A stretch of DNA of 64,000 nucleotides from Anaerolineales bacterium (GCA_035574015.1 DATLZK010000024.1:19594-83593), one strand, 5' to 3'. Counted from the first letter of the stretch, positions 8,435-63,516 are shown. The notes: a model not told the origin generated them from the letters alone. Program-made: numbers and translations.

Positions 8435-9648
8435 TCTATGGATGGGAGGGGAATACGCTTGGTTTTTCCTCTCTTTTCGAGGACATAATTGAAAGCATGG
8501 AGGTATTTCAAACAGGTGACTTCGGGACGCATCCGCTGGATGGATTGAAAATTATATTCTGCCTGCTGTCGCCGTCTTTCGGGGGAATCGAGCAAGAGGC
8601 GAAGTGCCGTACATAAGCTTTCGACGTTTCCTTTCTGAAAAAATTCGACGCACAAGCCACTTTCGACAGCCACTTTGTAAATTTCTTTCAAATCGGAGGC
8701 TACAACAGCGCGCCCCCACATGGCGGCCTGGTACAGCACAGACGATGAACCTGTCGAAGCCAAATAGGGCAGAACTACAATCTGCGCACGACGAAACAAC
8801 GACATCACGTTCTCCTCAGGAACCTGTCCAAGCCATTGCACGCGAGGCGTCCCATTGAAGCGCGCTTTCAAATCTCGCGCATAACCGGGAAAGCGCACAT
8901 GCTCTGCGCCGGCAATCGTCAGGCCCAATTGAGGATACTCCTCACACAATCTGTAAAAGGCTTCGAGCAACAATTCCAGACCTTTGAAAGGCGTGAGCGT
9001 CGTAAAGAACAACAACTCTTGTGAATCCGATTCGGGTAAAAAGTTCGGCTCATGATAGGCACCAAGGGGAATATGAACGCAATCTATCTTGCGTTTGCTG
9101 AGCCAGTCGGCGTAATAGCGCATGGTCAAACAGAGTAGATCCGCCTGCGCCGCGACGAGGGTCAAAAGCCGCGCGCCCCATGATGCAAACGGTCCGCCCG
9201 GCGCGCGCAAGAGGCGTAAATCGGACAGTTCAACCAGCTCATGCAATGTGACAACGGTGGGAATGCCCATACGCTGTGTAAACATTGGAAGAAACCAGCC
9301 CAACACATTTACCCATGGCGAGCGACCAAAGACGGACGCACCCAAATTGAACCAAACAAGATCGGGCTGCAAACGCATCACGCGGGACAAAATGGCCTGC
9401 GGCGCGTTAAACTGATCGGGCACCCAGCAATATTCGACTTCCGTTAAACCGAGATGATTAGGCGTTGTTCCGTACGGACATCCCCCTGCCAGCACAGTCA
9501 GGCGCGTGAACACGTTCGCTTGCGCCAGCGCACGTGTAACATAATAACCATATTGTCCAATACCAGTGATCGTCGGAGGAAACGGGCTGACAATGGCAAG
9601 ATGCATGAGGGGATTTGACAGAACCTCCCACAAGTTGTATAGTTTCAT
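8431..9648 (-). CDS. Glycosyltransferase, GT4 family
   Basis: 'HLAIVSPFPPTITGIGQYGYY' N-terminus and a C-terminal GT-B half ('VVLPYLASTGSSSVLYQAAMWGRAVVASD'). An alternative start is the ATG at 9606 (MHLAIV). Confidence 0.75.
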   Translation of the reverse strand: MKLYNLWEVLSNPLMHLAIVSPFPPTITGIGQYGYYVTRALAQANVFTRLTVLAGGCPYGTTPNHLGLTEVEYCWVPDQFNAPQAILSRVMRLQPDLVWFNLGASVFGRSPWVNVLGWFLPMFTQRMGIPTVVTLHELVELSDLRLLRAPGGPFASWGARLLTLVAAQADLLCLTMRYYADWLSKRKIDCVHIPLGAYHEPNFLPESDSQELLFFTTLTPFKGLELLLEAFYRLCEEYPQLGLTIAGAEHVRFPGYARDLKARFNGTPRVQWLGQVPEENVMSLFRRAQIVVLPYLASTGSSSVLYQAAMWGRAVVASDLKEIYKVAVESGLCVEFFQKGNVESLCTALRLLLDSPERRRQQAEYNFQSIQRMRPEVTCLKYLHAFNYVLEKRGKTKRIPLPSIE

Positions 9649-9706: not shown

Positions 9707-10579
9707 ATGTTATCCCAGGCAATCTTACAAACGGTCATTTATTCGGATGTTTTCGATTATCCACTAACCGCGCTAGAAATTCATCGCTATCTTACAGGGG
9801 TCAAAGCATCTTACCCGGAAGTGCTCCAAGCACTGAAAGAACATCCGCTCATCCGGCAAAGCGGAGAATACTTCATCCTCCCTGGGCGTGAGGACCTCAT
9901 TGCCACGCGCCAACAGCGCGAAGCGCGTTCGCACCAATTGCTACCATCTGCAATCCGCTACGGGCGCATCCTGGGCTCCCTGCCGTTTGTGCGCATGGTC
10001 GCCTTGACCGGTTCGCTTGCAGTGATGAACGTCTCCGCAGATGCCGATTTCGATTACCTGCTAGTCACGCAAGCCGGCCGATTGTGGACAGCGCGCGCCT
10101 TCGCTGTCACATTCGGGCGCCTCATGCGTCCATTTAGGCATCGAATCTGTGTGAACCTGCTTCTCGCCGAAAGCGCGCTACATTGGTCTCAGCATGACCT
10201 CTATTCAGCGCGCGAGTTATGTCAGATGATTCCTATCACAGGGCTAGATGTGTATCAAAGGTTGATGGAAGCCAACGAATGGGCGCAGGCATTTTTACCG
10301 AATGCGTTTCCACCCAAACCCATAGCGAAAGAGAAGCAGGCTCTGGCACTCCAGGCCCTTCTCGAACTTCCCCTGCGCGGCGAACTCGGCGACCGCCTCG
10401 AGCGATGGTTAATGACCTACCAACTACGTCGCATCGCGCGCCACTGGGGAACAGGTGAGGAGACTGCCTTTGGTGCCAATATCTGTCAATCCAATTTTCA
10501 CAATCATCGCAGAGGAACGCAGGAAACATTCGAAAAGAAAATGAATGCCTTGCTCAGGCAGGCGAGGGTGAGAGAATGA
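9707..10579 (+). CDS. Hypothetical protein with a nucleotidyltransferase-fold-like motif
   Basis: 'LTGSLAVMNVSADADFDYLLV' fits the pol-beta NTase pattern G-S-x(9-13)-D-x-D. The N-terminus ('YPLTALEIHRYL') looks like a winged helix. Its stop overlaps the next start (ATGA). The track start at 9680 is a TTG. Confidence 0.55.
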   Translation: MLSQAILQTVIYSDVFDYPLTALEIHRYLTGVKASYPEVLQALKEHPLIRQSGEYFILPGREDLIATRQQREARSHQLLPSAIRYGRILGSLPFVRMVALTGSLAVMNVSADADFDYLLVTQAGRLWTARAFAVTFGRLMRPFRHRICVNLLLAESALHWSQHDLYSARELCQMIPITGLDVYQRLMEANEWAQAFLPNAFPPKPIAKEKQALALQALLELPLRGELGDRLERWLMTYQLRRIARHWGTGEETAFGANICQSNFHNHRRGTQETFEKKMNALLRQARVRE

Positions 10580-12021
10580 CTCAAATCCTCCTCGGTCAAT
10601 CCTACTATTTGCGTTTCGACCCCAAACTCTGGCGGGCGATGATGCCCTATCCGCCACTGGGTACACTCTACGCCGCGAGTTGGCTGCGTCAGCATGGATA
10701 TGAGGTCGCCATGTTCGATGCGATGCTGGCGGAATCAGAAGAGGAATGGGCAAAGGCTTTGGATGAACACAGGCCGCGCTACGCTGTTATCTATGAAGAT
10801 AACTTCAACTATCTTTCCAAGATGTGTCTGCTTCGGATGCGCGAAGCCGCGTTCAAGATGATCCGCATGGCAAAGGAGCGTGGATGCACGGTCATTCTGT
10901 GCGGTGCAGATGTAAGCGACCACTACGATAAATATCTCAAACAAGGCGCGGATTACTGTCTCATCGGCGAAGGGGAGGAAACGTTGCTCGAATTGCTGGA
11001 TCAACTTTCGGGTAAGAGAGAAGCGGGGCTTGACTCCATCCCTGGTCTCGCGTACCGATCTTCCCCGCACGCCTCCCATTCTTCAATCGCCTGCACCCCT
11101 CGCCGCCCCGATATTACAAACCTCGATAAACTCCCCTTCCCCGCCTGGGACCTTGTGGACATCGAGAAATATAAATCCATCTGGCTGAAGCGACACGGCT
11201 ATTTTTCGATGAATATGGTTACCACGCGCGGCTGTCCTTATCACTGTAACTGGTGTGCCAAGCCAATTTGGGGTCAGCGCTACAATTCGCGTTCGCCGGA
11301 AAATGTGGTCGCGGAGATGAAATGGATCAAGGAAACATACGCGCCCGATCACATCTGGTTTGCGGATGACATTTTGGGATTGAAGCCAGGCTGGATCGAA
11401 AAATTTGCCGCGCTGGTCAACGAAGCCGATGCGGTCATTCCGTTCAAATGTTTACAGCGTGCGGATTTAGTGAACGAGAAGATCGCCCGCGCCCTGGCAA
11501 AGGCAGGGTGTAAAACCGTTTGGATTGGCGCCGAGTCTGGCTCGCAAAAGATTCTAGATGCCATGGAGAAGGGCGATCAGGTAGAGGACATTTATCGCGC
11601 TACCGCGCTGTTGCATCAGAACGGAATCGAAGTGGGCTTCTTCTTGCAGTTCGGCTATCCCGGTGAAACCTGGGAGGACATTCAAAAGACTTTGAAGATG
11701 GTCCGCGAGTGCGCACCCGATGACATTGGCATCTCGGTCTCGTACCCGCTACCTGGCACGAAATTCTACGAGCGCGTCAAAATGGAATTAGGCGAAAAGC
11801 AAAACTGGATTGACTCGGAAGACTTAGCAATGCTTTATCGCGGTCCATTTCCAACAGCGTTTTACCGCGTCCTACATAAAAGAGTGCATCATGAATTTCG
11901 CCTGAGGCAGGCATGGCGCAAACGCGATTGGGGGAAAATTCCTCGAACGCCTTATTACCTGGCGGGTATGCTTCTCTCTGAAATCTCTTTGCGCACGTGG
12001 CTGACAAAGCCGGCTCTTTGA
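10576..12021 (+). CDS. B12-binding-domain radical SAM protein (class B rSAM)
   Basis: The N-terminal Rossmann-like B12 domain ('YPPLGTLYAASWLRQHGYEVAMFD') is followed by 'TTRGCPYHCNWCAKP', a CxxxCxxC 4Fe-4S motif. Confidence 0.9.
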   Translation: MTQILLGQSYYLRFDPKLWRAMMPYPPLGTLYAASWLRQHGYEVAMFDAMLAESEEEWAKALDEHRPRYAVIYEDNFNYLSKMCLLRMREAAFKMIRMAKERGCTVILCGADVSDHYDKYLKQGADYCLIGEGEETLLELLDQLSGKREAGLDSIPGLAYRSSPHASHSSIACTPRRPDITNLDKLPFPAWDLVDIEKYKSIWLKRHGYFSMNMVTTRGCPYHCNWCAKPIWGQRYNSRSPENVVAEMKWIKETYAPDHIWFADDILGLKPGWIEKFAALVNEADAVIPFKCLQRADLVNEKIARALAKAGCKTVWIGAESGSQKILDAMEKGDQVEDIYRATALLHQNGIEVGFFLQFGYPGETWEDIQKTLKMVRECAPDDIGISVSYPLPGTKFYERVKMELGEKQNWIDSEDLAMLYRGPFPTAFYRVLHKRVHHEFRLRQAWRKRDWGKIPRTPYYLAGMLLSEISLRTWLTKPAL

Positions 12022-13565
12022 TGAGTATGAAAGCTGATCTCTATCTGCGCGTGCGAGAAAAAGAAGGGCGTCTTTATTCGGATGATATTGTCGTACACCT
12101 GCCTTCAATTCCAGACGGGCATCCGCTTGCAAACGAATGGCGCGCGCGTTCTCTCTCCGCTTCGCGCCTGACCCGTTACCTGGCGCGCCGACCCCAGCCG
12201 CTCACCATCCTTGACCTGGGCTGTGGCAATGGCTGGCTTTCCCATCACCTAAGTCAAATCGGGGCACAGGTCATTGGCATGGATGTGAATCATTTCGAAT
12301 TGGCGCAGGCAGCGCGGGTGTTTTCATCGCGTTCCAATCTGCTCTTCCTCGAAGGGGACATCTTTTCCGCGCCTTTTCCTCCCGCAGTGTTCGATATCAT
12401 TGTGCTTGCCAGCGTCATTCAATACTTTCCCGACCTGAACCGCTTGCTCCATGCCTTACTCCCCTTTTTGAAACCCGATGGAGAAATTCACATCTTGGAT
12501 AGTCCCCTCTACCCTTCTCAAGAGGAAAGAGAGGCCGCCGTTCAACGCACGCGAAGGTACTACAGCGAGCTGGGCTTTCCTGAAATGAGCGAACAGTATT
12601 TTCATCACTGCCTGTCGGAACTAAACGGTTTTTCTGTGAGCCGTCTGTATCATCCTCGCTCCTTTTTAGCGCGCCTGAAGCGTGTGCTTCGAGTGACCGA
12701 TTCCCCTTTCCCCTGGCTGGTTGTCCGTCATCCGCAATTGCAAATTTCCCTCATCGCCGAAGCCTTCTCGCGTACGGCTGAAAAATACGATGCTTTCGCA
12801 GAAGACCATCCGCACCTGACGCGCATGAGGAACAAGGTGTACGCGCAGGTCGAACGCTTTGTTCCGAAAGGGGCGCACATTCTCGAATTGAATTGTGGCA
12901 CCGGCACAGATGCAATCGAGCTGGCGCGGCGCGGTTACCGCATCCACGCCCTGGATATTGCCCCTGGCATGTTAGCGCGCCTGGAGAAAAAAGTGTTGGG
13001 GTTTGGTTTGCAGGAACGCGTCACCTTTCAACAAGGTTCTTTCCTGGAATTGCATCATGTTCGCGGCGGTCCTTTCGACGCGGTCTTTTCCAACCTGGGA
13101 GGCCTCAACTGCATTCCCGATCTTTCGCCAGTCATTGCACAACTCCCAAGCCTGTTACGGCCAGGCGGAACGATTATCTGGACGTTGATGCCACACATCT
13201 GCCTATGGGAAATGGCTGAAGCCCTGCGCGGTCACTTCAAACTAGCATTTCGACGATGGACGCGCGGTGCTGTGCGCGCTCATCTCGAAGGGTTGTATTT
13301 CGACGTGTATTATTTTTCACCGCGTCAGGTCATTGCCTGGTTTGGAGAAGATTTTGAAACGCTTGCGCTCGAAGGTTTATCGGTCATCACCCCCACTGCC
13401 GAAAATAAGGACCTCGCCAAAAAATTCCCGGCGCTCTACCGCCTCCTCTGCTGGCTCGATGACCGATTGGCGCCGCGCTATCCCTGGCATGGCTGGGGTG
13501 ACTTCTTCATCCTCACACTGCGCTATCAGCCGAAACACGCTTTCTCTCCATCTCACCCGAAGTAA
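12021..13565 (+). CDS. Tandem (two-domain) class I SAM-dependent methyltransferase
   Basis: It carries two separate motif-I regions: 'ILDLGCGNGWLS' and 'ILELNCGTGTDAIELARRG'. The ATG at 12021 overlaps the rSAM stop (TGATG); the track start at 11997 is a GTG inside the rSAM gene. Confidence 0.85.
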   Translation: MSMKADLYLRVREKEGRLYSDDIVVHLPSIPDGHPLANEWRARSLSASRLTRYLARRPQPLTILDLGCGNGWLSHHLSQIGAQVIGMDVNHFELAQAARVFSSRSNLLFLEGDIFSAPFPPAVFDIIVLASVIQYFPDLNRLLHALLPFLKPDGEIHILDSPLYPSQEEREAAVQRTRRYYSELGFPEMSEQYFHHCLSELNGFSVSRLYHPRSFLARLKRVLRVTDSPFPWLVVRHPQLQISLIAEAFSRTAEKYDAFAEDHPHLTRMRNKVYAQVERFVPKGAHILELNCGTGTDAIELARRGYRIHALDIAPGMLARLEKKVLGFGLQERVTFQQGSFLELHHVRGGPFDAVFSNLGGLNCIPDLSPVIAQLPSLLRPGGTIIWTLMPHICLWEMAEALRGHFKLAFRRWTRGAVRAHLEGLYFDVYYFSPRQVIAWFGEDFETLALEGLSVITPTAENKDLAKKFPALYRLLCWLDDRLAPRYPWHGWGDFFILTLRYQPKHAFSPSHPK

Positions 13566-38282: not shown

Positions 38283-40712
38283 GTGACTGCATTCGATTTA
38301 AACATTCTCCCCCTTCATCGTCTCAACGGGCAGGAGATGACAAACCTGCCGGGGCTACTTGCGCTCGCGCCTTCGCGCAAAGCCGCGCGGGAACGTATGC
38401 AGGATAGCCTTGTCCTTTATTTCATGCTTTCGGGCAATGCGCGGGTTGAGGCACATGAAATTGAAGAGTGGTTGCAAAACGCGGCGCATCAATTCTATCA
38501 ATGGCGTGGCTCCCTCACGGCCGCGATGAGGAAAGCTGCCGAGAGCCTCAACACGGCTTTGCTCGAACGCAATCTCTCCACCACCGGACGCGGACAATAT
38601 GCGCTCGGTTTGCTTGTGATTGCCTCCACGCGCGAGGCGCGCTGCACGCTGTTGCTGAGTGGACCAGCGCATGCGGTTTGGATCAGCGAGGGGCAATCGC
38701 GTCACTTTCACGACCCGGCGCTTTCGGGCAAGGGATTGGGATCGAGTCAGAGTTTGCGACCCTATTTCTCACAAGTGGAACTCCACCACAACGACCTACT
38801 CGTCTTGAGCGGAAAATTCCCGAAAGAGTGGGAAGCCGACTTGATGAACGAACGCCCGCCTGCCTCGCTGGAGGCAAGTTACCGCAAATTGATGTTTGCA
38901 AAAGGCGACCTGCACGCCGCGTTGATCCAAGCACAAAGCGGGCGGGGCAACATCACCCTCCTACGCCCTGCCAATTCTCCAATCTCCTCTTCTCCAATCT
39001 CCGCTCCTCCAATCTCCGCTCCTCCATTCCCCAATTCTCCAACCTCCTCTTCTCCAATCTCCCCTCCTCCATCCCCCAATTCTCCAACCTCCTCCCCGCC
39101 CTCCGAAAAAAAGCCTCCTTCTCTTGCCGACTTTCCCGCGCATGTGATACAGCCATCCGCCTATGCCATTCCACCGCGAACAGAAAGCCTGCCCACGCCC
39201 ACCGAAGAAAAAGCGACGGTGCGGTCTTTTCCTCCGTCCATACCTCGCGCGAAATCTGTTGATATAAAAATCGAAGCCGCGTCCAAAGAAGAAAAGCCCC
39301 CCGCAAAAGCGGAAAGCGATGCCCAAGCCTCCTCATCCCTCACGGAGGCCAAGCCCGGAGCGCACGCCGAAGCTGCGCGGCAGATGGCAAAAGCCGTTGT
39401 AAAAGGCATCCGCACCGGGCGACGTGTGAACGAACGATTAGGTGACCTTCTGCGCCGCTTCGTTCCCCGCATCATCCCCAACACCGATTCCACACAGGCA
39501 CTGACCATCCCCACTTATGCTATGGTCTTCATGGCTATCATCATTCCTGTTTTGGTGGTGACCATCGCAACCGTTGTTTATCTGCGCTTCGGTCAAAGTG
39601 TGCAGTATGATGAACTCTATCGTCAGGCGCTTGCTGTGCGCGCACAGGCTGTCAGCGAAGCAGATCCCATTCGCCAGCGCGATTTGTGGAATCAAGTGCT
39701 TTCATACGTGGATCAGGCAGAACGATACCGCGAAACCGACGAATCGAGATTGCTGCGTTCTGAAGCGCAATCGAATCTCGATGCGCTTATGGGCGTGTTG
39801 CGGCTTGAATTTATCCCCTCCTTCACCGGAGGGCTCGGCGGCTCCACGCAGATCAGCCGCATGGCAGCGAGCGAAAGCGACCTGTATATGCTCGATGCCG
39901 AAGGGGGCAACATCCTGCACGCCTCCTTCACAGGCCGTAGCCTTCAATTCGATAGCGCCTTCAATTGTCAACCGGGCACTTATGCGGGGTATCAGGTCGG
40001 CACACTCGTGGACATCGCGGCACTTCCCAAAGTCAACACCATCGGTGCGACCGTCATGGGCTTGGATACGGGTGGCACCCTGCTCTATTGCGCGCCGGGA
40101 CAGATTCCACAAGCCGTTCCCCTCCCTCCCCTGCCCAACACCAACTGGGTACGCATCACCGCCTTTGCGCTTGACAACGACAGGCTCTATGTGCTGGATG
40201 CGGGGGCACGCGCCGTCTGGGTTTTTCCCGGCAAAGATAGTGCCTTTCTCGACGCGCCTTACTTCTTCTTCGGCAACCAGATTCCCAACATCGAAAATGC
40301 GATTGATCTCGCGGTGAACGGCGACGACCTTTATCTTCTCCATTCCGACGGTCACCTCTCGACTTGCACCTTCAGCCGCGTCAACGGCGTTCCCACACGC
40401 TGCCAGGACCCTGCGCCCTTCGTGGATAACTTCCCCGCACATCAAGACCTCGCTCTCTTCGCACAAGCACACTTCACCCAAATCGCACTGACCAGTCCGC
40501 CAAACGTTGTGCTCCTCCTCCTCGATTCCGAAAATCGAAATGTCTATCGCTTCTCACCGCGCTCGCTCGAACTACAAAACATGATCACCGGCTTCGCAGG
40601 TAAAGCCAATCCATTCCAGGCCGGCCCCTTCACCGCAATGACCGTCAGCCCGAACTATGTGCTGTACGTTGCCATTGGCAACCAGGTTTACTTCACCACG
40701 AGCCTGCCGTGA
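38283..40712 (+). CDS. 809-aa protein of unknown function: cytoplasmic N-domain, Pro/Ser-rich tandem repeat, single TM, extracytoplasmic repeat (beta-propeller-like) domain
   Basis: Long ORF with protein-like composition. The linker is 'SPISSSPISAPPISAPPFPNSPTSSSPISPPPSPNSPTSSPPSE'. The TM segment is 'YAMVFMAIIIPVLVVTIATVVYL'. The C-terminal half has repeated 'LYVLD/LYLLH' strand-like motifs. The GTG start at 38283 is uncertain; an alternative ATG is at 38337. Confidence 0.65.
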   Translation: MTAFDLNILPLHRLNGQEMTNLPGLLALAPSRKAARERMQDSLVLYFMLSGNARVEAHEIEEWLQNAAHQFYQWRGSLTAAMRKAAESLNTALLERNLSTTGRGQYALGLLVIASTREARCTLLLSGPAHAVWISEGQSRHFHDPALSGKGLGSSQSLRPYFSQVELHHNDLLVLSGKFPKEWEADLMNERPPASLEASYRKLMFAKGDLHAALIQAQSGRGNITLLRPANSPISSSPISAPPISAPPFPNSPTSSSPISPPPSPNSPTSSPPSEKKPPSLADFPAHVIQPSAYAIPPRTESLPTPTEEKATVRSFPPSIPRAKSVDIKIEAASKEEKPPAKAESDAQASSSLTEAKPGAHAEAARQMAKAVVKGIRTGRRVNERLGDLLRRFVPRIIPNTDSTQALTIPTYAMVFMAIIIPVLVVTIATVVYLRFGQSVQYDELYRQALAVRAQAVSEADPIRQRDLWNQVLSYVDQAERYRETDESRLLRSEAQSNLDALMGVLRLEFIPSFTGGLGGSTQISRMAASESDLYMLDAEGGNILHASFTGRSLQFDSAFNCQPGTYAGYQVGTLVDIAALPKVNTIGATVMGLDTGGTLLYCAPGQIPQAVPLPPLPNTNWVRITAFALDNDRLYVLDAGARAVWVFPGKDSAFLDAPYFFFGNQIPNIENAIDLAVNGDDLYLLHSDGHLSTCTFSRVNGVPTRCQDPAPFVDNFPAHQDLALFAQAHFTQIALTSPPNVVLLLLDSENRNVYRFSPRSLELQNMITGFAGKANPFQAGPFTAMTVSPNYVLYVAIGNQVYFTTSLP
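38971..39095 (+). repeat. Imperfect in-frame tandem repeat (units of ~60 and ~45 nt built from CCAAT(T/C)(T/C)C(T/C)CC sub-repeats) inside the 809-aa gene
   Basis: 'CCAATTCTCCAA(T/C)CTCCTCTTCTCCAATCTCC' recurs at 38971 and 39031, with a partial copy at 39076. 'CTCCAATCTCCGCTC' is duplicated at 38993 and 39008. Confidence 0.85.
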
Positions 40713-41740
40713 AAAAAAGATCTCCTCTCCTGGATTTCCTCCTCTCCCTCCTCTTTCGCTGGAGACAAAAACCCTCGCCTCCGACTCAGCCGACGCCGAC
40801 TCCCGTTGATTCGGCCTCCCCTCCGCTGACAACCATTCTGCGCACCCTCCTCATCGTCTACGACCCCATTGTTGATCCTCAAAACGGCAAGCGCCTTTCC
40901 GAATACATGCACTGGAACAAAGTAGAAGACCTTGTCAGGGGATTCATGTCCGACATCCTTCAAATCAGTGGAGGCCTGGCGCGATATCAGATCGTCCAAC
41001 GCTTCGACGTAGATGACTTCCCGGCGAAAGTGGACGGCTACAAATACGACGCACAAACCTACCTCGACGTTATACGTGGACAGGCGCGCCCCTATCTGCC
41101 GCAGGAAGCCGACTATTACGCCATCCTCAAACGCTTCAATATACTGTATCGTGTGGCCAAAGGCGATCTTGACGAAGTCTGGCTCTTTGCCTTTCCCCAT
41201 GCAGGCTTCTATGAATCCATCATGGGCGGTCCTGGCGCCTTCTGGTGCAATGCCCCTCCGCTCAAAAACACCGAGGCGGCTAAAAGGCGCTTTGTCATCA
41301 TGGGCTTCTCGTTCGAACGCGGCATCGGCGAAATGCTCGAAAACATGGGGCATCGCGCCGAATCCATCATGGAAAAGGTCTTCGAGAACACAAACGAGGA
41401 AGACAACCTCTGGAAACGCTTCACGCGCTATGACCGAATTGCACCAGGTCGAGCCGCGTGCGGCAACGTCCACTTTGCGCCAAACAGTGAAAGGGACTAC
41501 GACTGGAACAATCCACGCCCCGTCCTCAGCGAATGTGATGACTGGCTGTACAACTTTCCCGATTTCAAAGGTATGATCCGTGAAGTCACGGCGGACGAAT
41601 GGGGCAGGGGCGACATCCGCGAACATCACAAGTGGTGGTTCAACCACTTCCCCAAAACTTCAGGTGAGAGAAATGGAGTTTACAACAATTGGTGGATGTA
41701 CGTGATGAACCCCAACTATGTCAAAGTCAAAAGCGGGTGA
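40709..41740 (+). CDS. 343-aa hypothetical protein (N-terminal hydrophobic segment plus Pro-rich linker; probably exported), translationally coupled to the preceding gene
   Basis: The GTG start overlaps the upstream stop (GTGA). The composition is protein-like with Trp/His-rich motifs ('ACGNVHFAPNSERDYDW', 'HHKWWFNHFP', 'NNWWMYVMNP'). The antisense ORF 40688..41647 has the composition typical of a shadow ORF. Confidence 0.65.
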   Translation: MKKRSPLLDFLLSLLFRWRQKPSPPTQPTPTPVDSASPPLTTILRTLLIVYDPIVDPQNGKRLSEYMHWNKVEDLVRGFMSDILQISGGLARYQIVQRFDVDDFPAKVDGYKYDAQTYLDVIRGQARPYLPQEADYYAILKRFNILYRVAKGDLDEVWLFAFPHAGFYESIMGGPGAFWCNAPPLKNTEAAKRRFVIMGFSFERGIGEMLENMGHRAESIMEKVFENTNEEDNLWKRFTRYDRIAPGRAACGNVHFAPNSERDYDWNNPRPVLSECDDWLYNFPDFKGMIREVTADEWGRGDIREHHKWWFNHFPKTSGERNGVYNNWWMYVMNPNYVKVKSG

Positions 41741-44281: not shown

Positions 44282-45007
44282 TTACCTTTTATTCCAGACT
44301 TGATACAAACTCAAGCGACGATTCTCGCCATCCGAATAAAAAGTTTCGGCAACGACAAAGCCGCTTTCTTGCGCCAGGGCAGATAATTCCTCCTCACTGA
44401 AGTGATGAACGTAGCGCAAACCTCTCCCTCCGCTTCGCCAATCGAGCAAATAATCCCCCGCTTCCACCTCCGACAAGGGAATGGATACCGCTTCCCAGGG
44501 CTGAATCCTCGCCTTGAGTTTTTCACTGCTCAAGAACTGCCAGTTCGAGTGGATGAACTTTCCAGCGGGTTTGAGCAGCGAATGGACGGTTTTCAAGACC
44601 TCCAGCCGCAGGTCGAAAGATGGAATGTGATGAAGGACGGCGAAAGCAGTAATCACCGACCATTGACCAGCAACGGATAACTGATCACTGATCGCTGACA
44701 ACCTCGTCAAATCCGCCTTCATAAATCTGGCAGAAAAACCCTCAGCGTGAGACTCCGCCTCTCGGAGCAGGGGCAGGCTAAAGTCCACGCCCAGATACGA
44801 GCCGCGGTGACCGCGTTTCGCCAGTTCGCGCGCGAGTTCCCCATTGCCGCATCCCAAATCTAATATGTCCTCATCCCCCTTCAAATTTTCGAGAATGCGG
44901 CGCACGCCCGGTTGCAATCTTCGGCGCGTGGCGGAAAACGAATCACCAAAGCGCGTGTAAAACTCGCGATTGAGTTCGAGCAGGCGCGCCGCAATGGCAG
45001 AATCCAT
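44282..45007 (-). CDS. Class I SAM-dependent methyltransferase, Trm9/ALKBH8-MTase-like
   Basis: 'FGDSFSATRRRLQPGV..IL', 'ILDLGCGNGELA', 'AVLHHIPS', 'LRYVHHFSEEEL' and 'DGENRRLSLYQVWNK' parallel yeast Trm9 (HFSQTRYKPWPIV..FL, DVGCGNGKYL, AVVHH, RYYHLYREGEL, ERDNWWVVAQK). The ATG at 45007 lies 6 nt after a TATAAT; the ORF extension to 45439 is antisense to Elp3. Confidence 0.75.
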   Translation of the reverse strand: MDSAIAARLLELNREFYTRFGDSFSATRRRLQPGVRRILENLKGDEDILDLGCGNGELARELAKRGHRGSYLGVDFSLPLLREAESHAEGFSARFMKADLTRLSAISDQLSVAGQWSVITAFAVLHHIPSFDLRLEVLKTVHSLLKPAGKFIHSNWQFLSSEKLKARIQPWEAVSIPLSEVEAGDYLLDWRSGGRGLRYVHHFSEEELSALAQESGFVVAETFYSDGENRRLSLYQVWNKR

Positions 45008-45013
45008 ATTGCG

Positions 45014-45030
45014 ATTATAACGGGTATAAT
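45014..45030. promoter_or_regulatory. Two opposed -10 boxes in the 30-bp Trm9-like/Elp3 spacer (leaderless geometry on both strands)
   Basis: On the minus strand, TATAAT (45019..45014) is followed by 6 nt and the ATG at 45007. On the plus strand, TATAAT (45025..45030) is followed by 7 nt and the ATG at 45038. Confidence 0.5.
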
Positions 45031-45037
45031 CCACTTG

Positions 45038-46702
45038 ATGATTCACATCGAACGAAGAGAACGCTGGAGAGAAACGCATCTCCTCACACCTGATAAAAAG
45101 GCTCTGGCGCGCGTCGTGCTGGAGGAGATTCGGCGCGGGCGCGATGTCACGCGCACCCTGCGCAGTCACCCGCTCAAGGGTGGCGGCTACCTCAACAAGT
45201 CTATGCTGGTTTCGATTTACAACGAGATGGTCGCCGCCGGGGAAATAAATGAGGATCCCCATCTGCTTGAGCGTATTCGCATGAAGCCCATGCGCACACT
45301 TTCCGGCGTGACGACGGTGACCGTTCTCACCAAGCCGTATCCATGCCCGGGCAAATGCATTTTCTGCCCAACTGATGTACGCATGCCCAAATCGTATTTG
45401 CCCGATGAGCCGGGCGCCATGCGCGCTGTGGAGCATCAATTCGATCCATATGCACAGGTGCGCTCACGCCTTGAACAATTGCAGAGTTTGGGGCATCCCA
45501 CCGACAAAATCGAGTTGTTGATTCTGGGCGGGACATGGTCATCCTATAAGCGCAGTTACCAGGAATGGTTCGTCAAGCGCTGCTTCGACGCGATGAACGA
45601 GAGGCACTCCTCTTTCTCCCCGCTCGTTCCACAGCCCAACCGCCAGGAGGGAGAGAGAAAACTGGAAAGCGGAGAATTGGCGAACGCCCACGCAATCAAT
45701 GAGACAGCCATTCACCGCAACGTGGGATTGGTGATCGAAACCCGTCCCGATGAAATCACGCCTGATGAAATCCGCTGGCTTCGTTATCTTGGCGTGACCA
45801 AAGTGCAACTGGGCGCGCAAAGCCTCGATGACCGCATTCTTGAACTCAACAAGCGCGGTCATGATGTGGAATGCACGCGCAAAGCCGTCGCCCTGCTACG
45901 CGCCGCAGGATTCAAAATCGTCTTGCACTGGATGCCCAATCTGCTAGGCGCAACACCTGCCTCAGACCGTGAGGACTTCGCGCGCCTCTGGCAGGATTTT
46001 TGCCCAGATGAAATCAAAATCTACCCCAACCAGTTGCTCCCAAACGCCGAGTTGTATGAATATTGGTTGCGCGGTGAATTCAAACCCTATACCACGCAGG
46101 AACTCATTGATTTGCTCGCCGACATCAAACCGACCATTCCGCGCTATTGCCGCGTCAACCGTGTCATTCGTGATATTCCCTCCACAAACGTGGTAGAGGG
46201 CAACCGCCGAACAAGCTTGCGGCAGGATGTGCAAAATGAATTGAAACGGCGCGGCACGCGGTGCGAATGCATCCGATGCCGCGAAGTGCGCGGAAAACCG
46301 GTAAACCCCGAATCGCTGAAACTGGATGATCTGGTCTATCGAGCCGGCACGGCGGAGGAACACTTCCTCTCGTTCATCACGCCCGACGATAGATTGGCCG
46401 GCTTCTTGCGCCTCTCCCTGCCCGGCGCGGCTTCCCCGCAAACGGGACTGCACGATCTGGATGGAGCGGCATTGATTCGCGAGGTGCATGTGTACGGACA
46501 GTCGCTCCCCGTAGGCATGGAAAAGGAAGGTGCGGCACAACATGCCGGTCTAGGCACGCGTTTGCTTCAGCAGGCAGAAGCAATTGCAAAAGAAAAGGGC
46601 TTCAAGCGAATGGCGGTCATTTCCGCCGTTGGCACACGTGGATATTATCTCGAACGCGGATTCGAGCGGGGAGAACTTTATCTTGTGAAAGAGATCGGTT
46701 AA
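45038..46702 (+). CDS. elp3: Elp3-type radical SAM / GNAT acetyltransferase (tRNA wobble-uridine cm5U synthase homologue)
   Basis: 'KPMRTLSGVTTVTVLTKPYPCPGKCIFCP' (C-x4-C-x2-C), an rSAM barrel, and a C-terminal GNAT 'QHAGLGTRLLQQAEAIAKEKGFKRMAVISAVGTRGYYLERGF'. The ATG at 45038 lies 7 nt after a TATAAT. Confidence 0.85.
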   Translation: MIHIERRERWRETHLLTPDKKALARVVLEEIRRGRDVTRTLRSHPLKGGGYLNKSMLVSIYNEMVAAGEINEDPHLLERIRMKPMRTLSGVTTVTVLTKPYPCPGKCIFCPTDVRMPKSYLPDEPGAMRAVEHQFDPYAQVRSRLEQLQSLGHPTDKIELLILGGTWSSYKRSYQEWFVKRCFDAMNERHSSFSPLVPQPNRQEGERKLESGELANAHAINETAIHRNVGLVIETRPDEITPDEIRWLRYLGVTKVQLGAQSLDDRILELNKRGHDVECTRKAVALLRAAGFKIVLHWMPNLLGATPASDREDFARLWQDFCPDEIKIYPNQLLPNAELYEYWLRGEFKPYTTQELIDLLADIKPTIPRYCRVNRVIRDIPSTNVVEGNRRTSLRQDVQNELKRRGTRCECIRCREVRGKPVNPESLKLDDLVYRAGTAEEHFLSFITPDDRLAGFLRLSLPGAASPQTGLHDLDGAALIREVHVYGQSLPVGMEKEGAAQHAGLGTRLLQQAEAIAKEKGFKRMAVISAVGTRGYYLERGFERGELYLVKEIG

Positions 46703-51712: not shown

Positions 51713-54700
51713 ATGCTAAAGAATTTCGTCAAACTTCTTGGGGGCGACCCCCATAAAAAAGTCATCGAACAACTTAGCGGCATTGTCGAGCAGATCAATG
51801 CTTTGGAGCCTCAATTCGAGAAATTGAGCGACGAAGCGCTCCGCGCCAAGACCGATGAATTCCGCGCCCGCATCGCCGAGGCGCTGGGGAATTTGGAAGG
51901 GCTTGATGAACGGGAACAGTTCAAGGCTGAGCAAGAAGCGTTGAACGAAATCCTGCCCGAAGCCTTTGCCGCGGTACGTGAAGCCTCCAAACGCACAATA
52001 GGTCTGCGTCACTATGATGTTCAATTGATCGGCGGCATTGTCCTGCATCGCGGCGCTATCGCTGAGATGCGCACTGGCGAAGGAAAGACACTTGTCGCTA
52101 CCCTCCCTATTTACCTCAATGCACTTCTTGGAAAAGGCGTTCATCTGGTGACAGTAAACGATTACCTGGCGCGGCGCGACGCGCGCTGGATGGCACCTAT
52201 CTTTCATATGCTTGGGCTTTCGGTTGGCGTGCTGCAAATGGCGGCGGTGACCGAGAACGGGAAAAAAGCATTCCTTGTTGATTTCACGCGCGAATCCCCA
52301 CACGAAGATCAGCATCACCTTCGCATGGTGGATCGTGCGGAGGCGTACGCGGCGGATGTCACCTATGGGACAAATTCCGAGTTCGGCTTCGACTATCTGC
52401 GCGATAACATGGCCATGCGCCTGAGCGACCGTGTCCAGCGCGGACATTATTACGCCATCGTGGATGAGGTAGACAATGTATTGATTGATGAAGCGCGCAC
52501 GCCCCTGATTATTTCCGGCCCCGCCTCAGGCAACCTCGAATGGTATGCCAAAATGGCGCAGGTAGTACGACAACTCAAACCGGAAGATTATGAAATCAAC
52601 GAAAAGGATCGCGTTGTTTCACTCACAGAAGTCGGCATGGCTCACGTCGAGCAACTCCTGGGCTTCCCGCTGATGGACGCCGACCGCCCTGAAGATGTGA
52701 CACCTGAACAGGCACGCCTGCGCGGCTATCTCGAACAGGCTCTGCGCGCGCAATTCCTTTTCAAGCGCAACAAGGATTATCTCGTGCAGGGTGGCAAGGT
52801 GGTGATCGTGGATGAATTCACCGGGCGCCTCATGCCCGGCCGAAGGTGGAGCGATGGGCTTCATCAGGCAGTGGAGGCAAAAGAGGGCGTAAAGATCGAA
52901 CCGGAAAACATTACCTATGCCACCATCACCCTGCAAAACTATTTCCGCATGTACAAAAAATTGGCGGGCATGACCGGCACCGCCCTCACCGAGGCGGAAG
53001 AGTTCAGCAAAATCTACAACCTCGAAGTCGTCCCCATCCCCCCCCACCTGGAATATCTGGCGTTCGGCAAGAATGCTCAACTTGTTGAAATCAAAACAAA
53101 GGACGAAGACGGCTACCCCTATTCCTATTTTGCGAAGCGCGACGACCCGCAAAAAAAACCGCTCTTCTATCGCCGTAAGGATTATCCTGATGTGATCTAC
53201 CGCACAGTGGAGGCAAAACTGCGCGCTATCGTGATGGAGATTGTGCGCGAACACGCGCGCGGACGCCCCTTGTTAATCGGTACCACATCGGTCGAATCTT
53301 CCGAACGACTTTCGCTTCGCCTCAAGGCGGAGTCTGTGCGCCGTTTAATGCAAATTGCCCTCGTCCGACGCTTTTGGATGCAGGCGAATAACCGCGAAGA
53401 GGATGGGAGGCTGATATCCGAACTGGCGCAATTCAACGAGCCGCTCGAAAAAATCACCCCCGATGCACTTCGCAAATTCATCCAACCTTACGGGATTACC
53501 AATATCAATCCTGAAGATCCAGCCAACCTGTCTATCATCCTCGAACTCCTGCGACTCGATGAGAGTCATGCAGAACGCGTCAAAAAGATCCTTCAGGGCG
53601 GTGTGCCACATCAGGTATTGAACGCGCGTAAACACACTGAAGAATCGCAGATCATCGCAGGCGCCGGCGCGTTCGGCGCAGTGACCATTGCCACCAATAT
53701 GGCCGGGCGTGGCGTGGATATCAAACTCGGCGGTGAACTGGCTGAAGAAGTCATTGCCGCTGTTAATCGCGTGCTCGGCAGAGCCGGCTATAAGGACCCG
53801 TTCGACATGACCCATGAGGAACGCCGCGCCGCCCTGAAAGAAATTGATCCCTCCCTCTATGGCATTTACGCGGCGGAGGTCAAACTCTTCCTGCAATACT
53901 TCGAAGACATGGAGCGCGTGAAGGAACTTGGCGGTTTGCACGTCATCGGTACTGAACGACACGAGGCGCGTCGCATTGATAATCAACTGCGCGGGCGCGC
54001 CGCGCGTCAGGGCGACCCTGGCTCCTCGCGCTTCTATCTTTCTCTCGAAGATGACCTGTTGCGGCTGTTCGGCGGTGACCGCATCAAAAACCTGATGCAA
54101 ACCATCAAGGTAGATGACTCGCTTCCACTGGAAATGCGGCTTGTTGGCAGCATCATCGAAAGTTCCCAACACCGCGTTGAAGGCGCAAACTTTGACGTTC
54201 GCAAGCATCTGCTCGAATATGACGATGTGCTGAACAAACAGCGCATGCAAATTTATGCCCAGCGCGATCGCATCTTCCTCAAGGAGGATTTGAGCGACGA
54301 CATCGCGGAAATGTTGGAAACCGAAGTGAAACAGCGCGTACAAGCGGGACTGGCAGATGAAGAAGGTCCCTGGAAGTTGATTGCCTGGCTCGAACAAATT
54401 CAGCCGCCGTTCATGTCGGGGGAACGCATCTTCCCCAGTTTTGGCATGTCTCTTCTGCTAAAGGAGTTATCCCATTCCAACAACCTTCGCCAGGCTGTGT
54501 TCGATCTGATTGCCCGTGCCATCGAAATGGAGAACGCACATCATTTGCGCGCCATCGAGGCATTTCTCGAACACACCACGGAAAGTTTGCACGCGCAACT
54601 CTCTGCGCGGGAAGACACGCTGGACGCTTACTTTGACGGTCTGCGCGACCGGGAAGGAGCGGAACGCCCGCGGCCCCAAAAGATGTTGGAGGAAATCAAC

Positions 54701-55732
54701 GCCCTGATTGGCATGCAACTGCGCCTCAACAACGAACAACTGCGCATGCTCGGCGAAAACCCGATAGAAGTCAAAGATGACATCAAACAACATGTCACCA
54801 CACAATTTGCTACCCTGTATAGCCTGCGTGCTGTCAATGCCATTTCGCAGCGGATTGGGGAATCGCTAGGGGAACGCTTTGAAATTTCGGGGTGGGAAGA
54901 TGCGGCAGAGAAATTGCTCGAAGCCGCGCGCCAGGCACTTGAGCGCCGCCGTGAAAGGTTAATCGGTACGAATGGACAGATCGCGCGCGACCTCGAAACC
55001 CTCATCCCTCCTGATGCCTCACAGACCTGGAACGATACAGACAAACTCAAATTACTCATCAACATTTCCCAAGGCACGCGCACTTCCTTCGATCAGAGAA
55101 CACATAAGCAAGTTAAGCAGATTTTCAATCGCTTTCAATACACCTTCCTGATGGCGCGATTGCTCGAAGGACGCGAAGCCGACGCGTTGACCGAAGAAGT
55201 GCTGGCGCATCTCGAGGAAGCCGAAGAGGCGTTGCGTTTTGCGGTTGGACAGATGGAATACACTCGGCTTGCCGCCAATGCAACGCACCTGGCAGATTTC
55301 GGTGTGGCAGCGAAGATGGCTTTCGGGGAGGAGCGGCTGAATGAAACGGTAGCCAGCCTCGGGGAGTCCGATCGGGAGGCGTTGATCGAGGCGCTGGGCA
55401 AATTTGTGTTGAACGAGACACGCCGACAACTCCTCCTCGGCGCGACCACCGAGTTATGGGTGGATTACCTGACGCGTATCGAAGCCTTGCGCGTTTCCAT
55501 TGGCCTTGAGGCCTACGCCCAACGCGACCCGCTGGTACAATATAAATCCAGAGCCTCTGAAATGTTTGCACAGTTGATGGAAGATATTCGCGGACTGGTG
55601 ATCAACCGCTTGTTCGTGGCGCAACGCAGAGCGGTAGCAATTACCCCTGTAGAAACAACAGAGGCATCCCCTCCTTTACCGCAAAGCACGGTTACAGAAG
55701 GCGGTAAAAAGAGGAAAAGACGACGGCATTGA
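51713..55732 (+). CDS. secA: Preprotein translocase ATPase SecA, unusually long (1339 aa)
   Basis: 'MRTGEGKTLVATLP' Walker A, 'DEVDNVLIDEARTPLIISG', 'TNMAGRGVDIKLGG', 'GTERHEARRIDNQLRGRAARQGDPGSSRFYLSLEDDL' and 'AYAQRDPLVQYK'. Confidence 0.95.
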   Translation: MLKNFVKLLGGDPHKKVIEQLSGIVEQINALEPQFEKLSDEALRAKTDEFRARIAEALGNLEGLDEREQFKAEQEALNEILPEAFAAVREASKRTIGLRHYDVQLIGGIVLHRGAIAEMRTGEGKTLVATLPIYLNALLGKGVHLVTVNDYLARRDARWMAPIFHMLGLSVGVLQMAAVTENGKKAFLVDFTRESPHEDQHHLRMVDRAEAYAADVTYGTNSEFGFDYLRDNMAMRLSDRVQRGHYYAIVDEVDNVLIDEARTPLIISGPASGNLEWYAKMAQVVRQLKPEDYEINEKDRVVSLTEVGMAHVEQLLGFPLMDADRPEDVTPEQARLRGYLEQALRAQFLFKRNKDYLVQGGKVVIVDEFTGRLMPGRRWSDGLHQAVEAKEGVKIEPENITYATITLQNYFRMYKKLAGMTGTALTEAEEFSKIYNLEVVPIPPHLEYLAFGKNAQLVEIKTKDEDGYPYSYFAKRDDPQKKPLFYRRKDYPDVIYRTVEAKLRAIVMEIVREHARGRPLLIGTTSVESSERLSLRLKAESVRRLMQIALVRRFWMQANNREEDGRLISELAQFNEPLEKITPDALRKFIQPYGITNINPEDPANLSIILELLRLDESHAERVKKILQGGVPHQVLNARKHTEESQIIAGAGAFGAVTIATNMAGRGVDIKLGGELAEEVIAAVNRVLGRAGYKDPFDMTHEERRAALKEIDPSLYGIYAAEVKLFLQYFEDMERVKELGGLHVIGTERHEARRIDNQLRGRAARQGDPGSSRFYLSLEDDLLRLFGGDRIKNLMQTIKVDDSLPLEMRLVGSIIESSQHRVEGANFDVRKHLLEYDDVLNKQRMQIYAQRDRIFLKEDLSDDIAEMLETEVKQRVQAGLADEEGPWKLIAWLEQIQPPFMSGERIFPSFGMSLLLKELSHSNNLRQAVFDLIARAIEMENAHHLRAIEAFLEHTTESLHAQLSAREDTLDAYFDGLRDREGAERPRPQKMLEEINALIGMQLRLNNEQLRMLGENPIEVKDDIKQHVTTQFATLYSLRAVNAISQRIGESLGERFEISGWEDAAEKLLEAARQALERRRERLIGTNGQIARDLETLIPPDASQTWNDTDKLKLLINISQGTRTSFDQRTHKQVKQIFNRFQYTFLMARLLEGREADALTEEVLAHLEEAEEALRFAVGQMEYTRLAANATHLADFGVAAKMAFGEERLNETVASLGESDREALIEALGKFVLNETRRQLLLGATTELWVDYLTRIEALRVSIGLEAYAQRDPLVQYKSRASEMFAQLMEDIRGLVINRLFVAQRRAVAITPVETTEASPPLPQSTVTEGGKKRKRRRH

Positions 55733-62178: not shown

Positions 62179-63516
62179 TTACACTGTAATCAACTCAGGT
62201 TGTTTCTGTACACGCGCTTGCATGGACCAGGGTCCCGTCCAGGTGATGATCACAGGGAGAATCTTGCCTCGCAGGTCCTCTTCTGATTCGACAAAGACAA
62301 GTTTATTTGTGGGTGTGCGTCCCTTCCAGCGGTTCTTCACCTTTTCTTCGAACAGCACTTCCACGGTCTGACCAAGATAGTTTTGATTGATTTCGGCAGA
62401 AATGCGCTCCTGCAACTCCTCCAACATGCGGAATCGGCGCATTTTCTCCTCATCGGGGACATTATCCACCATACGGCGCGCGGAAACGGTACCCTCTCGA
62501 GGCGAGTAGCGAGCCAAATGGGCAACATCCAGTTTGAGGTCCGCGAGGACGCGATAGGTATCCATGAATTGTTCTTCAGTTTCGCCGGGAAATCCAACGA
62601 TGATGTCTGTTGCGATGGAGCATCCCGGAATCTTTTTGCGGATTTTTTCGATGAGCGCTCGATAATCCTTTTGTGTGTAACCGCGCCTCATATTTGCCAG
62701 CACTTCATCGTTGCCAGCCTGAATGGGAACTTCGATGTGCGGCATGACCTTAGGAAGTTCGGCAACGGCATCCATCAAGTCTTCGGTGAAGTAGTTGGGG
62801 TGTGAGGTGAGGAAGCGAATGCGCTCAATGCCTTCAACCTCGTGCACGACGCGAAGCAAGCCTGCAAGATTGGGACCCTCTGGAATGTCTTTCCCATAGC
62901 GATCCACAATTTGACCCAGCAAGGTAACTTCCTTGACGCCCTGCGCAACGAGCGAACGAATCTCTGCGACAATGTCGCCAACGGGACGTGAGCGTTCGGG
63001 TCCGCGTCGGTATGGGATGATGCAGAACGTGCAGGCGTGCGAGCAGCCGTAGACCACCGGAACATGTGCGCTCACAAGTTGCCCGCGCTCATGCAGAGGG
63101 AGGAGGAGATCGCCGTCCATGTAGGCGAAGCGACGCGCTGTCTCGCTCGATTCGAGGGCGCGGATTTCGCCTTGTGTGAGGTAGGAGATCAGCGGTCCTG
63201 GATCGGAAGGTGGTGAGAACACATCCACATAGGGAAATTTTTCGCGCAGTTTGTCCGCGCCGCGCACGCCGACGAGGCATCCCATCAGATTGATGACAAG
63301 ATTGGGATTTCGCTTCTTGAGTGGAAGCAGGCTGGAGAGGCGTCCGAGTGCCTTGTCTTCCGCAGACTGCCTCACGACGCAGGTATTTAAAACAATAACG
63401 TCTGCTTCTTCGGCTTTATCGGTAAAGGTGTATCCAAGATGCTCAAGTGACGAGCCGACGCGCTGCGAGTCGGCAACATTCATTTGGCATCCTTCGGTCC
63501 AAATATGATACTTCAT
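62179..63516 (-). CDS. miaB: tRNA-2-methylthio-N6-dimethylallyladenosine synthase (methylthiotransferase)
   Basis: 'TEGCQMNVADS', 'VVYGCSHACTFCIIPYRRG' (CxxxCxxC) and a C-terminal TRAM domain. Confidence 0.9.
   Translation of the reverse strand: MKYHIWTEGCQMNVADSQRVGSSLEHLGYTFTDKAEEADVIVLNTCVVRQSAEDKALGRLSSLLPLKKRNPNLVINLMGCLVGVRGADKLREKFPYVDVFSPPSDPGPLISYLTQGEIRALESSETARRFAYMDGDLLLPLHERGQLVSAHVPVVYGCSHACTFCIIPYRRGPERSRPVGDIVAEIRSLVAQGVKEVTLLGQIVDRYGKDIPEGPNLAGLLRVVHEVEGIERIRFLTSHPNYFTEDLMDAVAELPKVMPHIEVPIQAGNDEVLANMRRGYTQKDYRALIEKIRKKIPGCSIATDIIVGFPGETEEQFMDTYRVLADLKLDVAHLARYSPREGTVSARRMVDNVPDEEKMRRFRMLEELQERISAEINQNYLGQTVEVLFEEKVKNRWKGRTPTNKLVFVESEEDLRGKILPVIITWTGPWSMQARVQKQPELITV

Follow-up and report, generated by a model that had tools for sequence, protein, structure and literature searches.

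A divergent gene pair encoding Elp3 and a Trm9-like methyltransferase is conserved across bacterial phyla and resembles the Elongator/Trm9 wobble-uridine pathway

The eukaryotic Elongator/Trm9-Trm112 pathway of wobble-uridine modification is well studied, and the known Trm9 enzymes need Trm112. Among the archaea, Trm9-Trm112 of H. volcanii makes 5-methoxycarbonylmethyluridine (mcm5U), and an Elp3-Trm9 gene cluster is found in S. solfataricus (PMC6144793, PMC2584109). For bacteria, a 2020 review from the group behind the Elp3 structure confines Elp3 to Dehalococcoides (PMC7663514), according to a review of Trm112, bacteria have no genes that resemble the Trm112-dependent methyltransferases of eukaryotes (PMC5372719), and a 2026 paper places Elp3 in 'numerous bacteria' and says nothing further. 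Here, we describe two divergently oriented genes, one encoding Elp3 and the other a Trm9-like class I S-adenosylmethionine (SAM)-dependent methyltransferase (MTase), in a 64,000-nucleotide stretch of DNA (the window) from an Anaerolineales bacterium (GCA_035574015.1, DATLZK010000024.1:19594-83593). We present evidence that the two genes form a unit that is kept together across bacterial phyla, and we weigh the proposal that their products would form a pathway leading to mcm5U at the tRNA wobble position.

The MTase and Elp3 open reading frames (ORFs) encode proteins of 241 and 554 amino acids (Table 1). Both occur where a preliminary description of the window, made from the sequence alone, had placed them, on opposite strands and exactly 30 bp apart, and every peptide quoted there is found in the translations (FSATRRRLQPGV, LDLGCGNG, AVLHHIPS, RYVHHFSEEEL and DGENRRLSLYQVWNK for the MTase; CPGKCIFCP and AVISAVGTRGYYLERGF for Elp3). 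Longer alternative starts exist at TTG codons (45439 for the MTase and 44912 for Elp3), but with either of them the genes would overlap. In other assemblies the homologues begin at the methionine used here ('MDSAVAARLL...' for the MTase), and Elp3 is called there at 554-557 amino acids. Because Elp3 scores 494.8 bits on the NCBIfam model TIGR01211 (cutoff 350, residues 66-553) and homologues of the MTase number in the thousands, the two ORFs are, as judged by homology, real genes rather than chance ORFs. A consensus promoter scan of the 30-bp spacer found no sigma-70-like site, and a terminator scan of the same interval was likewise empty; since the spacer is so short, the promoters must overlap the coding sequence of the partner gene. 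The best relatives of the window are metagenome-assembled genomes (MAGs) of uncultured Anaerolineales (Chloroflexota), and neither MnmE nor MnmG was found among the window ORFs scanned.

The linkage of the two genes was scanned in one genome per GTDB species with a query built from 18 closer MTase sequences. Close homologues (>73% identity) are uninformative on this point because the whole 12-kb neighbourhood is common to them; they were excluded as evidence, and distant loci were used instead. The resulting 80 MTase loci, whose enzymes are 28-70% identical to the window MTase, represent at least eight phylum-level groups. They come from Anaerolineales and other Chloroflexota, from Patescibacteria (Saccharibacteria, Paceibacterota, Woesebacteria, WWE3, Dojkabacteria, Kuenenbacteria and Komeilibacteria), with others in Fermentibacteria, Acidobacteriota ('Multivorans') and MAGs that carry the labels Myxococcales, Gammaproteobacteria and Omnitrophota. 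Of the 80 loci, 67 contain Elp3: the two genes are immediately divergent (roughly <250 nt between MTase and Elp3) in about 54 and divergent with a spacer of 0.6-2.4 kb in 10, and the other 3 are arranged differently. Three loci are uninformative, their sequence stopping within 150 nt of the MTase start, and the end of a fourth (L046) falls in a weak fragment of Elp3.

The remaining neighbours in the window, namely the GAF-GGDEF, DnaJ, HtrA-like protease, molybdopterin oxidoreductase and sigma factor genes and two genes for unknown proteins, are not kept, each occurring in 0-3 of the 80 loci. All-against-all clustering of the ORFs in these loci found no third recurrent gene family, returning only shadow ORFs of the pair. 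Furthermore, the pairwise distances among the Elp3 proteins correlate with those among the MTases (r=0.92, Mantel p<=0.001), the MTase evolving faster (mean distance 0.63 vs 0.48). Because the adjacency persists across phyla while other neighbours are lost, because no third family accompanies the pair and because the distances are correlated, the view that Elp3 and the MTase constitute a two-gene functional unit is strongly supported. The preliminary description had proposed such a unit and had named conservation of the adjacency in relatives as a check; the synteny reported here bears both out, as does the same arrangement in Dehalococcoides mccartyi described below. As judged by genomic proxy only, the MTase would depend functionally on Elp3, whose product it would take as its substrate.

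Several individual loci deserve mention. The Elp3 match is fragmented in L029, L044 and L063, which may reflect frameshifts or pseudogenes. The pair is also present in MAGs labelled Nitrosomonadaceae (L025), Myxococcales (L067) and Gammaproteobacteria/Pseudomonadales (L070, L072 and L082). Since the identities at L025 (MTase 51%, Elp3 63%) are at the level typical of Anaerolineales, that pair could represent a binning error or a recent horizontal transfer of the cassette.

The linkage is replicated independently in the Dehalococcoidia. The sequence of D. mccartyi Elp3 (DmcElp3) was reconstructed from a PDB alignment, and its relatives were then looked up. In D. mccartyi CP019867.1 (L087), a 224-amino acid class I MTase is encoded 43 nt upstream of Elp3 on the opposite strand. 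Of five other Dehalococcoidia contigs that are informative, four (L088, L090, L091 and L092) likewise show a divergent MTase; one more contig ended too near Elp3 to judge. The Dehalococcoides partner belongs to a shorter MTase subfamily with 25% identity to the window MTase (E 8e-11), and alignment of the two subfamilies indicates that they are homologous (hhalign probability 99.8%, E 3e-28). When the profile of this subfamily was compared with the PDB, the P. horikoshii protein PH0226 ranked first (74 bits, over the core alone) and Trm9 second (71.7 bits, near full-length). The Elp3 proteins of this type are about 460 amino acids long and lack the N-terminal extension of the window protein, so that two predicted Elp3 length classes, with long and short N termini, pair with two Trm9-like clades. 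The Dehalococcoidia pair sits in a conserved block with genes for RuvB, the tRNA-modification enzyme QueH and a GNAT protein.

The window Elp3 belongs to its family over its whole length. In addition to the TIGR01211 match, Pfam detects Radical_SAM (PF04055) and Radical_SAM_C (PF16199), both above their cutoffs, together with Acetyltransf_1 (PF00583). Searches of the PDB return M. infernus Elp3 (MinElp3, 1e-112), DmcElp3 (4e-110) and eukaryotic Elp3 (~1e-79), and the protein aligns colinearly with the solved Elp3 structures as far as the C-terminus. The protein carries the three-Cys Zn motif described for bacterial and archaeal Elp3 (PMC6367351). It also possesses an N-terminal extension, a region described as important in tRNA binding and as absent from DmcElp3 (PMC6367351); the extension recurs in other Elp3 proteins paired with the window MTase subfamily and resembles that of archaeal and eukaryotic Elp3. 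Every sequence-testable feature of the family being present, the predicted product is a full Elp3. The Elp3-type assignment of the preliminary description, made from the cluster motif, the radical-SAM barrel and the C-terminal GNAT domain, is thus upheld by a score above the curated cutoff and by the presence of all domains, whereas its term 'sporadic' for bacterial Elp3 was an understatement, as the protein is more widespread among bacteria.

The family to which the MTase belongs was explored by an exhaustive HMMER search, which gave 264 clusters (50% identity) at E<=1e-30 and full-length relatives down to about 35% identity. An alignment of 91 diverse relatives served as the family profile. 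Compared with the PDB, this profile ranks Yarrowia Trm9 (5CM2_Z) first (4.9e-17, 65 bits), and the best single stretch of the match reaches 62 bits against at most 50 for any other chain. Trm9 is the only PDB match that spans profile positions 25-221, from the N-terminal 'TR' to the C-terminal 'RY' motif; the remaining matches cover the Rossmann core alone, roughly positions 40-155. An hhalign comparison of the family with a two-sequence Trm9 alignment extended over 199 columns (99.4% probability, E 5e-21); since high probabilities are common between class I MTases, the extent of the alignment is the informative part. A phmmer search of the PDB with the MTase that adjoins Elp3 in a Paceibacterota locus (L075) also returned Trm9 first (3.4e-18, residues 25-216), with the next match 13 bits lower. 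The Patescibacteria members carry the near-canonical Trm9 motifs 'HFSQTRvmPW' and 'RYYH/RYYY', which, together with the L075 match, indicates that the window MTase family grades into classical Trm9. The automatic pipeline of the Joint Genome Institute (JGI) names many family members 'tRNA (uracil-5-)-methyltransferase TRM9', and some 'UbiG/UbiE-like'. An AlphaFold2 model built with the 91 relatives shows a Rossmann-type fold with high confidence (predicted local distance difference test score 96.2, predicted template modelling score 0.92).

Two structures rank beside Trm9 repeatedly in these comparisons, 3SM3 (M. mazei Q8PUK2) and 1VE3 (P. horikoshii PH0226). Both are uncharacterised structural-genomics MTases, and 1VE3 is also matched by yeast Trm9; both might be archaeal representatives of this broader group.

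The resemblance to Trm9 extends to the active site. Activity of yeast Trm9 (ScTrm9) requires R29, D72, H116, W145, W168, R241, Y243 and N271 (Létoquart et al., PMC4678810). Of these, R29, H116 and R241 have been proposed to position the cm5U (5-carboxymethyluridine) carboxylate and W145 and W168 to stack on the nucleotide, while Y243 and N271 were modelled as contacting the docked cm5U nucleotide, N271 reading the uracil ring; the R29A mutant keeps 5% activity and H116A is inactive (PMC4678810). The yeast sequence on which we mapped these residues was not taken from a database entry; it matches Yarrowia Trm9 at 4.5e-71, reproduces all 14 residue numbers in PMC4678810 and was accepted for this purpose. 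Conservation was counted in the 91 diverse relatives and in 59 Elp3-paired sequences, the latter comprising 58 genomic loci and the window.

Six of the eight essential residues have equivalents in the window MTase (R29=R28, D72=D75, H116=H127, W145=W156, W168=W190 and R241=R198), and these are kept in 89-91 of the 91 relatives and in 57-59 of the 59 Elp3-paired sequences. Within the latter set R28, H127 and R198 are each found in 59/59, and H126 in 58/59. The lid consists of a hairpin, D185-YLLD-W190, followed by G-L-R198-Y199-V200-H201 (=R241-Y242-Y243-H244), and the AlphaFold2 model likewise predicts a beta-hairpin at 185-190/196-201. The pairing of W190 with W168 rests on HMMER and, transitively, on the Dehalococcoides subfamily; when hhalign is given the yeast sequence alone, W168 is paired with W171 instead. 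In the Dehalococcoides-type subfamily R24, D69, H116/H117, W146, Q150, R173, Y175 and N212 show no variation and W164 is close to invariant, and all eight essential Trm9 residues are covered, Y243 corresponding to Y175 and N271 to N212. The preliminary description had likened the MTase to yeast Trm9 and the ALKBH8 MTase domain from its motifs, and the family profile, the hhalign alignment, the L075 search and the six shared residues now substantiate that likeness.

We therefore regard the pair as a likely wobble-uridine pathway, with a probability of roughly two in three, in which Elp3 would make cm5U34 and the MTase would make mcm5U34. In the first step, Elp3 would use a SAM-derived 5'-deoxyadenosyl radical and acetyl-CoA to place a carboxymethyl group on C5 of U34 in some tRNAs, as expected from its family membership and from published biochemistry on archaeal and bacterial Elp3. 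In the second, the MTase, as a relative of Trm9 and the ALKBH8 domain, would use SAM to convert the cm5U carboxylate into its methyl ester. By analogy with the proposal for the yeast enzyme, Arg28, His127 and Arg198 would hold this carboxylate in position, with Trp156 and Trp190 stacked on the nucleotide. The two genes are inherited together and share a divergent control region that is very short, and the MTase probably works without a neighbouring Trm112 activator.

A number of observations weigh against this proposal. Ten informative loci contain the MTase with no Elp3 nearby; the loci without an Elp3 in their sequence are L013, L026, L031, L034, L055, L056, L058, L061, L069 and L080. According to the 2020 review, direct evidence of 5-carboxymethyluridine derivatives (xcm5U) in Elp3-bearing bacteria is lacking (PMC7663514). 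Two motif searches for a Trm112-like Zn-knuckle ORF found none in the window or in 93 related loci (~1 Mb), so the MTase may be Trm112-independent or may be served by a partner encoded elsewhere. Two essential Trm9 residues are not kept in the window MTase: Y243 is replaced by V200, at a position that is Val or Cys in most members and Tyr in 6 of the 59, and N271 probably by R231, in an N/D/R column where the register is uncertain. Sequence and fold comparisons of the single protein are also less selective than the family profile. Pfam and NCBIfam match generic class I families only (in Pfam, Methyltransf_23/25/12/31/11), and all NCBIfam matches lie far below the curated cutoffs of 103-366 bits. 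A PDB search with the window MTase alone ranks 3SM3 first and places Trm9 5CM2_Z 17th (1.9e-4), with an unusually long match over residues 27-225. Foldseek returned 926 PDB matches for the model at E<=0.001, the top 50 of them near-tied with 3SM3 first; Trm9 is fifth by these near-tied E-values, with the highest target-normalised TM-score listed (0.76). Pfam, NCBIfam and Foldseek cannot distinguish Trm9 from other class I MTases, and hhalign probabilities, high between most of these enzymes, are not specific alone.

The main alternative concerns the product of the reaction. The MTase could be tied to Elp3 and yet not yield mcm5U, methylating instead another atom, intermediate or nucleotide of the same tRNAs or forming a bacterial-specific xcm5U derivative. 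Synteny shows linkage rather than chemistry, and, besides the substitution of Y243, the Arg or variable residue at the N271 position and the lack of a nearby Trm112, the lid between W156 and W190 is longer than its counterparts (33 amino acids, the yeast segment having 22 and that of the Dehalococcoides type 17). We nevertheless consider such a product unlikely. The carboxylate-positioning set (Arg28, His126/127 and Arg198) and both Trp residues are almost invariant, and the sister subfamily encoded beside DmcElp3 has the complete Trm9 residue set. Moreover, Patescibacteria members combine Tyr at position 200 with the canonical Trm9 motifs, which argues for a continuum and not for a change of function.

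The unspecific database matches raise a second alternative, that the MTase is an ordinary small-molecule or protein MTase of the UbiE/UbiG/BioC/CpaM kind and a chance neighbour of Elp3. Its best NCBIfam and Pfam matches are indeed to such families: CpaM at 45 bits, BioC at 41.6 (cutoff 184.95), UbiG at 36.8 (102.95), UbiE at 32.6 (216), the MenG/UbiE subfamily at 28.8 (158.35) and Pfam Ubie_methyltran at 24. In addition, UbiG structures occur among the PDB matches in the single-sequence search, alongside the 'UbiG/UbiE-like' names that JGI gives to some homologues. An identity as UbiE, UbiG or BioC was rejected on account of the scores, which fall below the equivalog cutoffs, and of the restriction of the matches to the Rossmann core. 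Clustering with UbiE/UbiG, which the preliminary description had named as the outcome at odds with Trm9 kinship, was not observed, these models reaching 29-37 bits vs cutoffs of 103-216. Chance adjacency is very improbable in our estimation, because the association with Elp3 persists down to 28% MTase identity, in phyla unrelated to one another, while the rest of the neighbourhood changes. That Elp3 is a protein or other acetyltransferase, or that the pair acts on an RNA other than tRNA and the MTase modifies that substrate, is hardly credible: Elp3 was historically proposed as a histone or lysine acetyltransferase and nothing in the window identifies the substrate, the 64 kb containing no tRNA genes, but only tRNA triggers acetyl-CoA hydrolysis by bacterial, archaeal and eukaryotic Elp3 (PMC6367351), and the catalytic motifs of the tRNA enzyme are all present in the window protein.

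Taken as a route to mcm5U, the pair implies that these bacteria probably make the eukaryote/archaeon-type nucleoside. It adds a bacterial member to a known pathway, one hinted at by automatic annotation based on KEGG Orthology and undescribed in the literature searched. In that literature we found no described MTase partner of a bacterial Elp3, in keeping with the statement in the preliminary description that no dedicated Trm9-type partner had been characterised, although the automatic JGI 'TRM9' labels exist. In publications on Elongator, Elp3 in bacteria is treated as a curiosity; here it forms part of a two-gene unit conserved in many phyla, and D. mccartyi, the source of the crystallised Elp3, is among the carriers. 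The pair bears on what bacterial Elp3 is for, on whether Trm9 chemistry runs without Trm112, on how the Elongator pathway arose in evolution and on the decoding of split codon boxes in the reduced-genome Patescibacteria. It would also provide a minimal two-protein system for the mcm5U pathway, which is relevant to human disease. More tentatively, it is possible that large bacterial groups, among them Anaerolineae, Dehalococcoidia, much of the Patescibacteria (candidate phyla radiation) and some Acidobacteriota and others, decode with an Elp3-dependent xcm5U wobble system of archaeal/eukaryotic type that employs a Trm112-independent Trm9 relative and is encoded by a two-gene cassette; the product of the window subfamily would then perhaps be an uncatalogued derivative, and the system would perhaps replace MnmE/MnmG.

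Table 1. Features of the Elp3-MTase locus in window coordinates; the last two rows are numbered within locus L087.
Feature	Coordinates	Strand	Basis or conservation
Trm9-like class I SAM-dependent MTase, 241 aa	44282..45007	-	translation, Pfam, family profile, AlphaFold2 model
Lid region of MTase, W156 (=W145) to H201	44405..44542	-	W156 90/91, W190 91/91, R198 90/91, Y199 89/91
His126-His127 dyad (=ScTrm9 H115/H116)	44627..44632	-	H127 91/91, H126 81/91
D75, acidic SAM-ribose ligand (=ScTrm9 D72)	44783..44785	-	kept in 89/91
SAM motif I, LDLGCGNG, aa 49-56	44840..44863	-	G52, C53 invariant
N-terminal helix motif Y17...F24-S-A-T-R28 (=ScTrm9 Y18...F-S-Q-T-R29)	44924..44959	-	Y17 and R28 each 90/91, 59/59
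Spacer between the two divergent start codons	45008..45037		30 bp, sequence
Elp3 (tRNA U34 carboxymethyl synthase; radical SAM + GNAT/lysine acetyltransferase (KAT)), 554 aa	45038..46702	+	TIGR01211, Pfam, PDB matches
N-terminal extension of Elp3, ~aa 1-82, 16 K/R	45038..45283	+	alignment starts at residue 83 (DmcElp3), 71-74 (MinElp3)
Radical-SAM [4Fe-4S] motif C103-PGK-C107-IF-C110-P	45344..45370	+	aligns with CPGKCIYCP of DmcElp3
Three-Cys Zn motif C409-E-C411-IR-C414, inter-domain linker	46262..46279	+	aligns with 'CRCIRC' of MinElp3 and DmcElp3
GNAT/KAT acetyl-CoA domain, aa 440-542, with QHAGLGTRLL	46355..46663	+	Pfam Acetyltransf_1
D. mccartyi MTase (L087)	4283-4957	-	
D. mccartyi Elp3 (L087)	5001-6380	+	

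The window contains other genes of interest. The 445-amino acid product of 62179-63516 (-) has UPF0004 and Radical_SAM domains and looks, from this domain content, like a MiaB/MtaB/RimO-type methylthiotransferase, and it would be the second enzyme of the window likely to modify tRNA or the ribosome. The gene at 10576-12021 (+) encodes a B12-binding radical-SAM enzyme and overlaps by 25 nt the gene at 11997-13565 (+), whose 522-amino acid product has two tandem class I MTase domains. Beside these lie two group-1 glycosyltransferase genes (4240-5484 and 8431-9648) and an ORF of 1037 amino acids, and the region may be a cluster for lipid, glycan or natural-product tailoring. The SecA encoded at 51713-55732 (+) is 1339 amino acids long, a typical SecA being several hundred residues shorter. 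Its DEAD-like match extends over 422 residues vs a profile of 290 positions, and both the P-loop domain and the wing/scaffold domain are split into two matched parts, which suggests large insertions. Finally, two overlapping ORFs without a Pfam match, 38283-40712 (+, 809 amino acids) and 40709-41740 (+, 343 amino acids), are found together with the GAF-GGDEF gene in a small number of related loci from Anaerolineales (L009, L011 and L016); the longer one has a Pro/Ser-rich repeat region ('SSSPISAPPISAPPFPNSPTSSSPISPPPSPNSPTSSPPS').

The systems most closely comparable to the window pair differ from it in distinct ways. Yeast Trm9-Trm112 and the human ALKBH8 MTase domain-TRMT112 have the same class I SAM fold as the window MTase and the same N-terminal helix 'FS-x-TR', His-His dyad after strand 4, Trp after strand 5 and C-terminal hairpin lid 'W...RY-x-H'. 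Six of eight essential residues are held in common, and the window MTase, like both of these enzymes, would act downstream of Elp3. The window MTase is, however, only about 19-26% identical to Trm9 in the Foldseek and hhalign alignments, and is set apart from it by the Val and the Arg or variable residue at the positions of Y243 and N271, by its longer lid and by the lack of a Trm112 gene nearby. Unlike ALKBH8, it has no AlkB or RRM domains, and its gene belongs to a bacterial host and is physically paired with that of Elp3. CmoM carries out SAM-dependent methyl esterification of a wobble-uridine carboxylate, converting uridine 5-oxyacetic acid (cmo5U) to its methyl ester (mcmo5U). This chemistry is analogous to the step proposed for the MTase, but the window MTase is not CmoM (21 bits vs a cutoff of 366). 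MnmE/MnmG occupy the same niche, the C5 side chains of U34 in bacteria, with entirely different enzymes and chemistry. DmcElp3 (PDB 5L7J) shares with the window Elp3 its architecture, the CxxxCxxC cluster, the Zn motif and a divergent MTase; it lacks the N-terminal extension of about 80 amino acids, and its partner MTase is from the shorter subfamily. The archaeal systems (HVO_1032-Trm112 and the S. solfataricus cluster), compared here by description only, likewise join a stand-alone Elp3 to a Trm9 homologue, but the archaeal enzyme has been shown to need Trm112, whereas the window pair is a tight divergent arrangement that recurs across many bacterial phyla.

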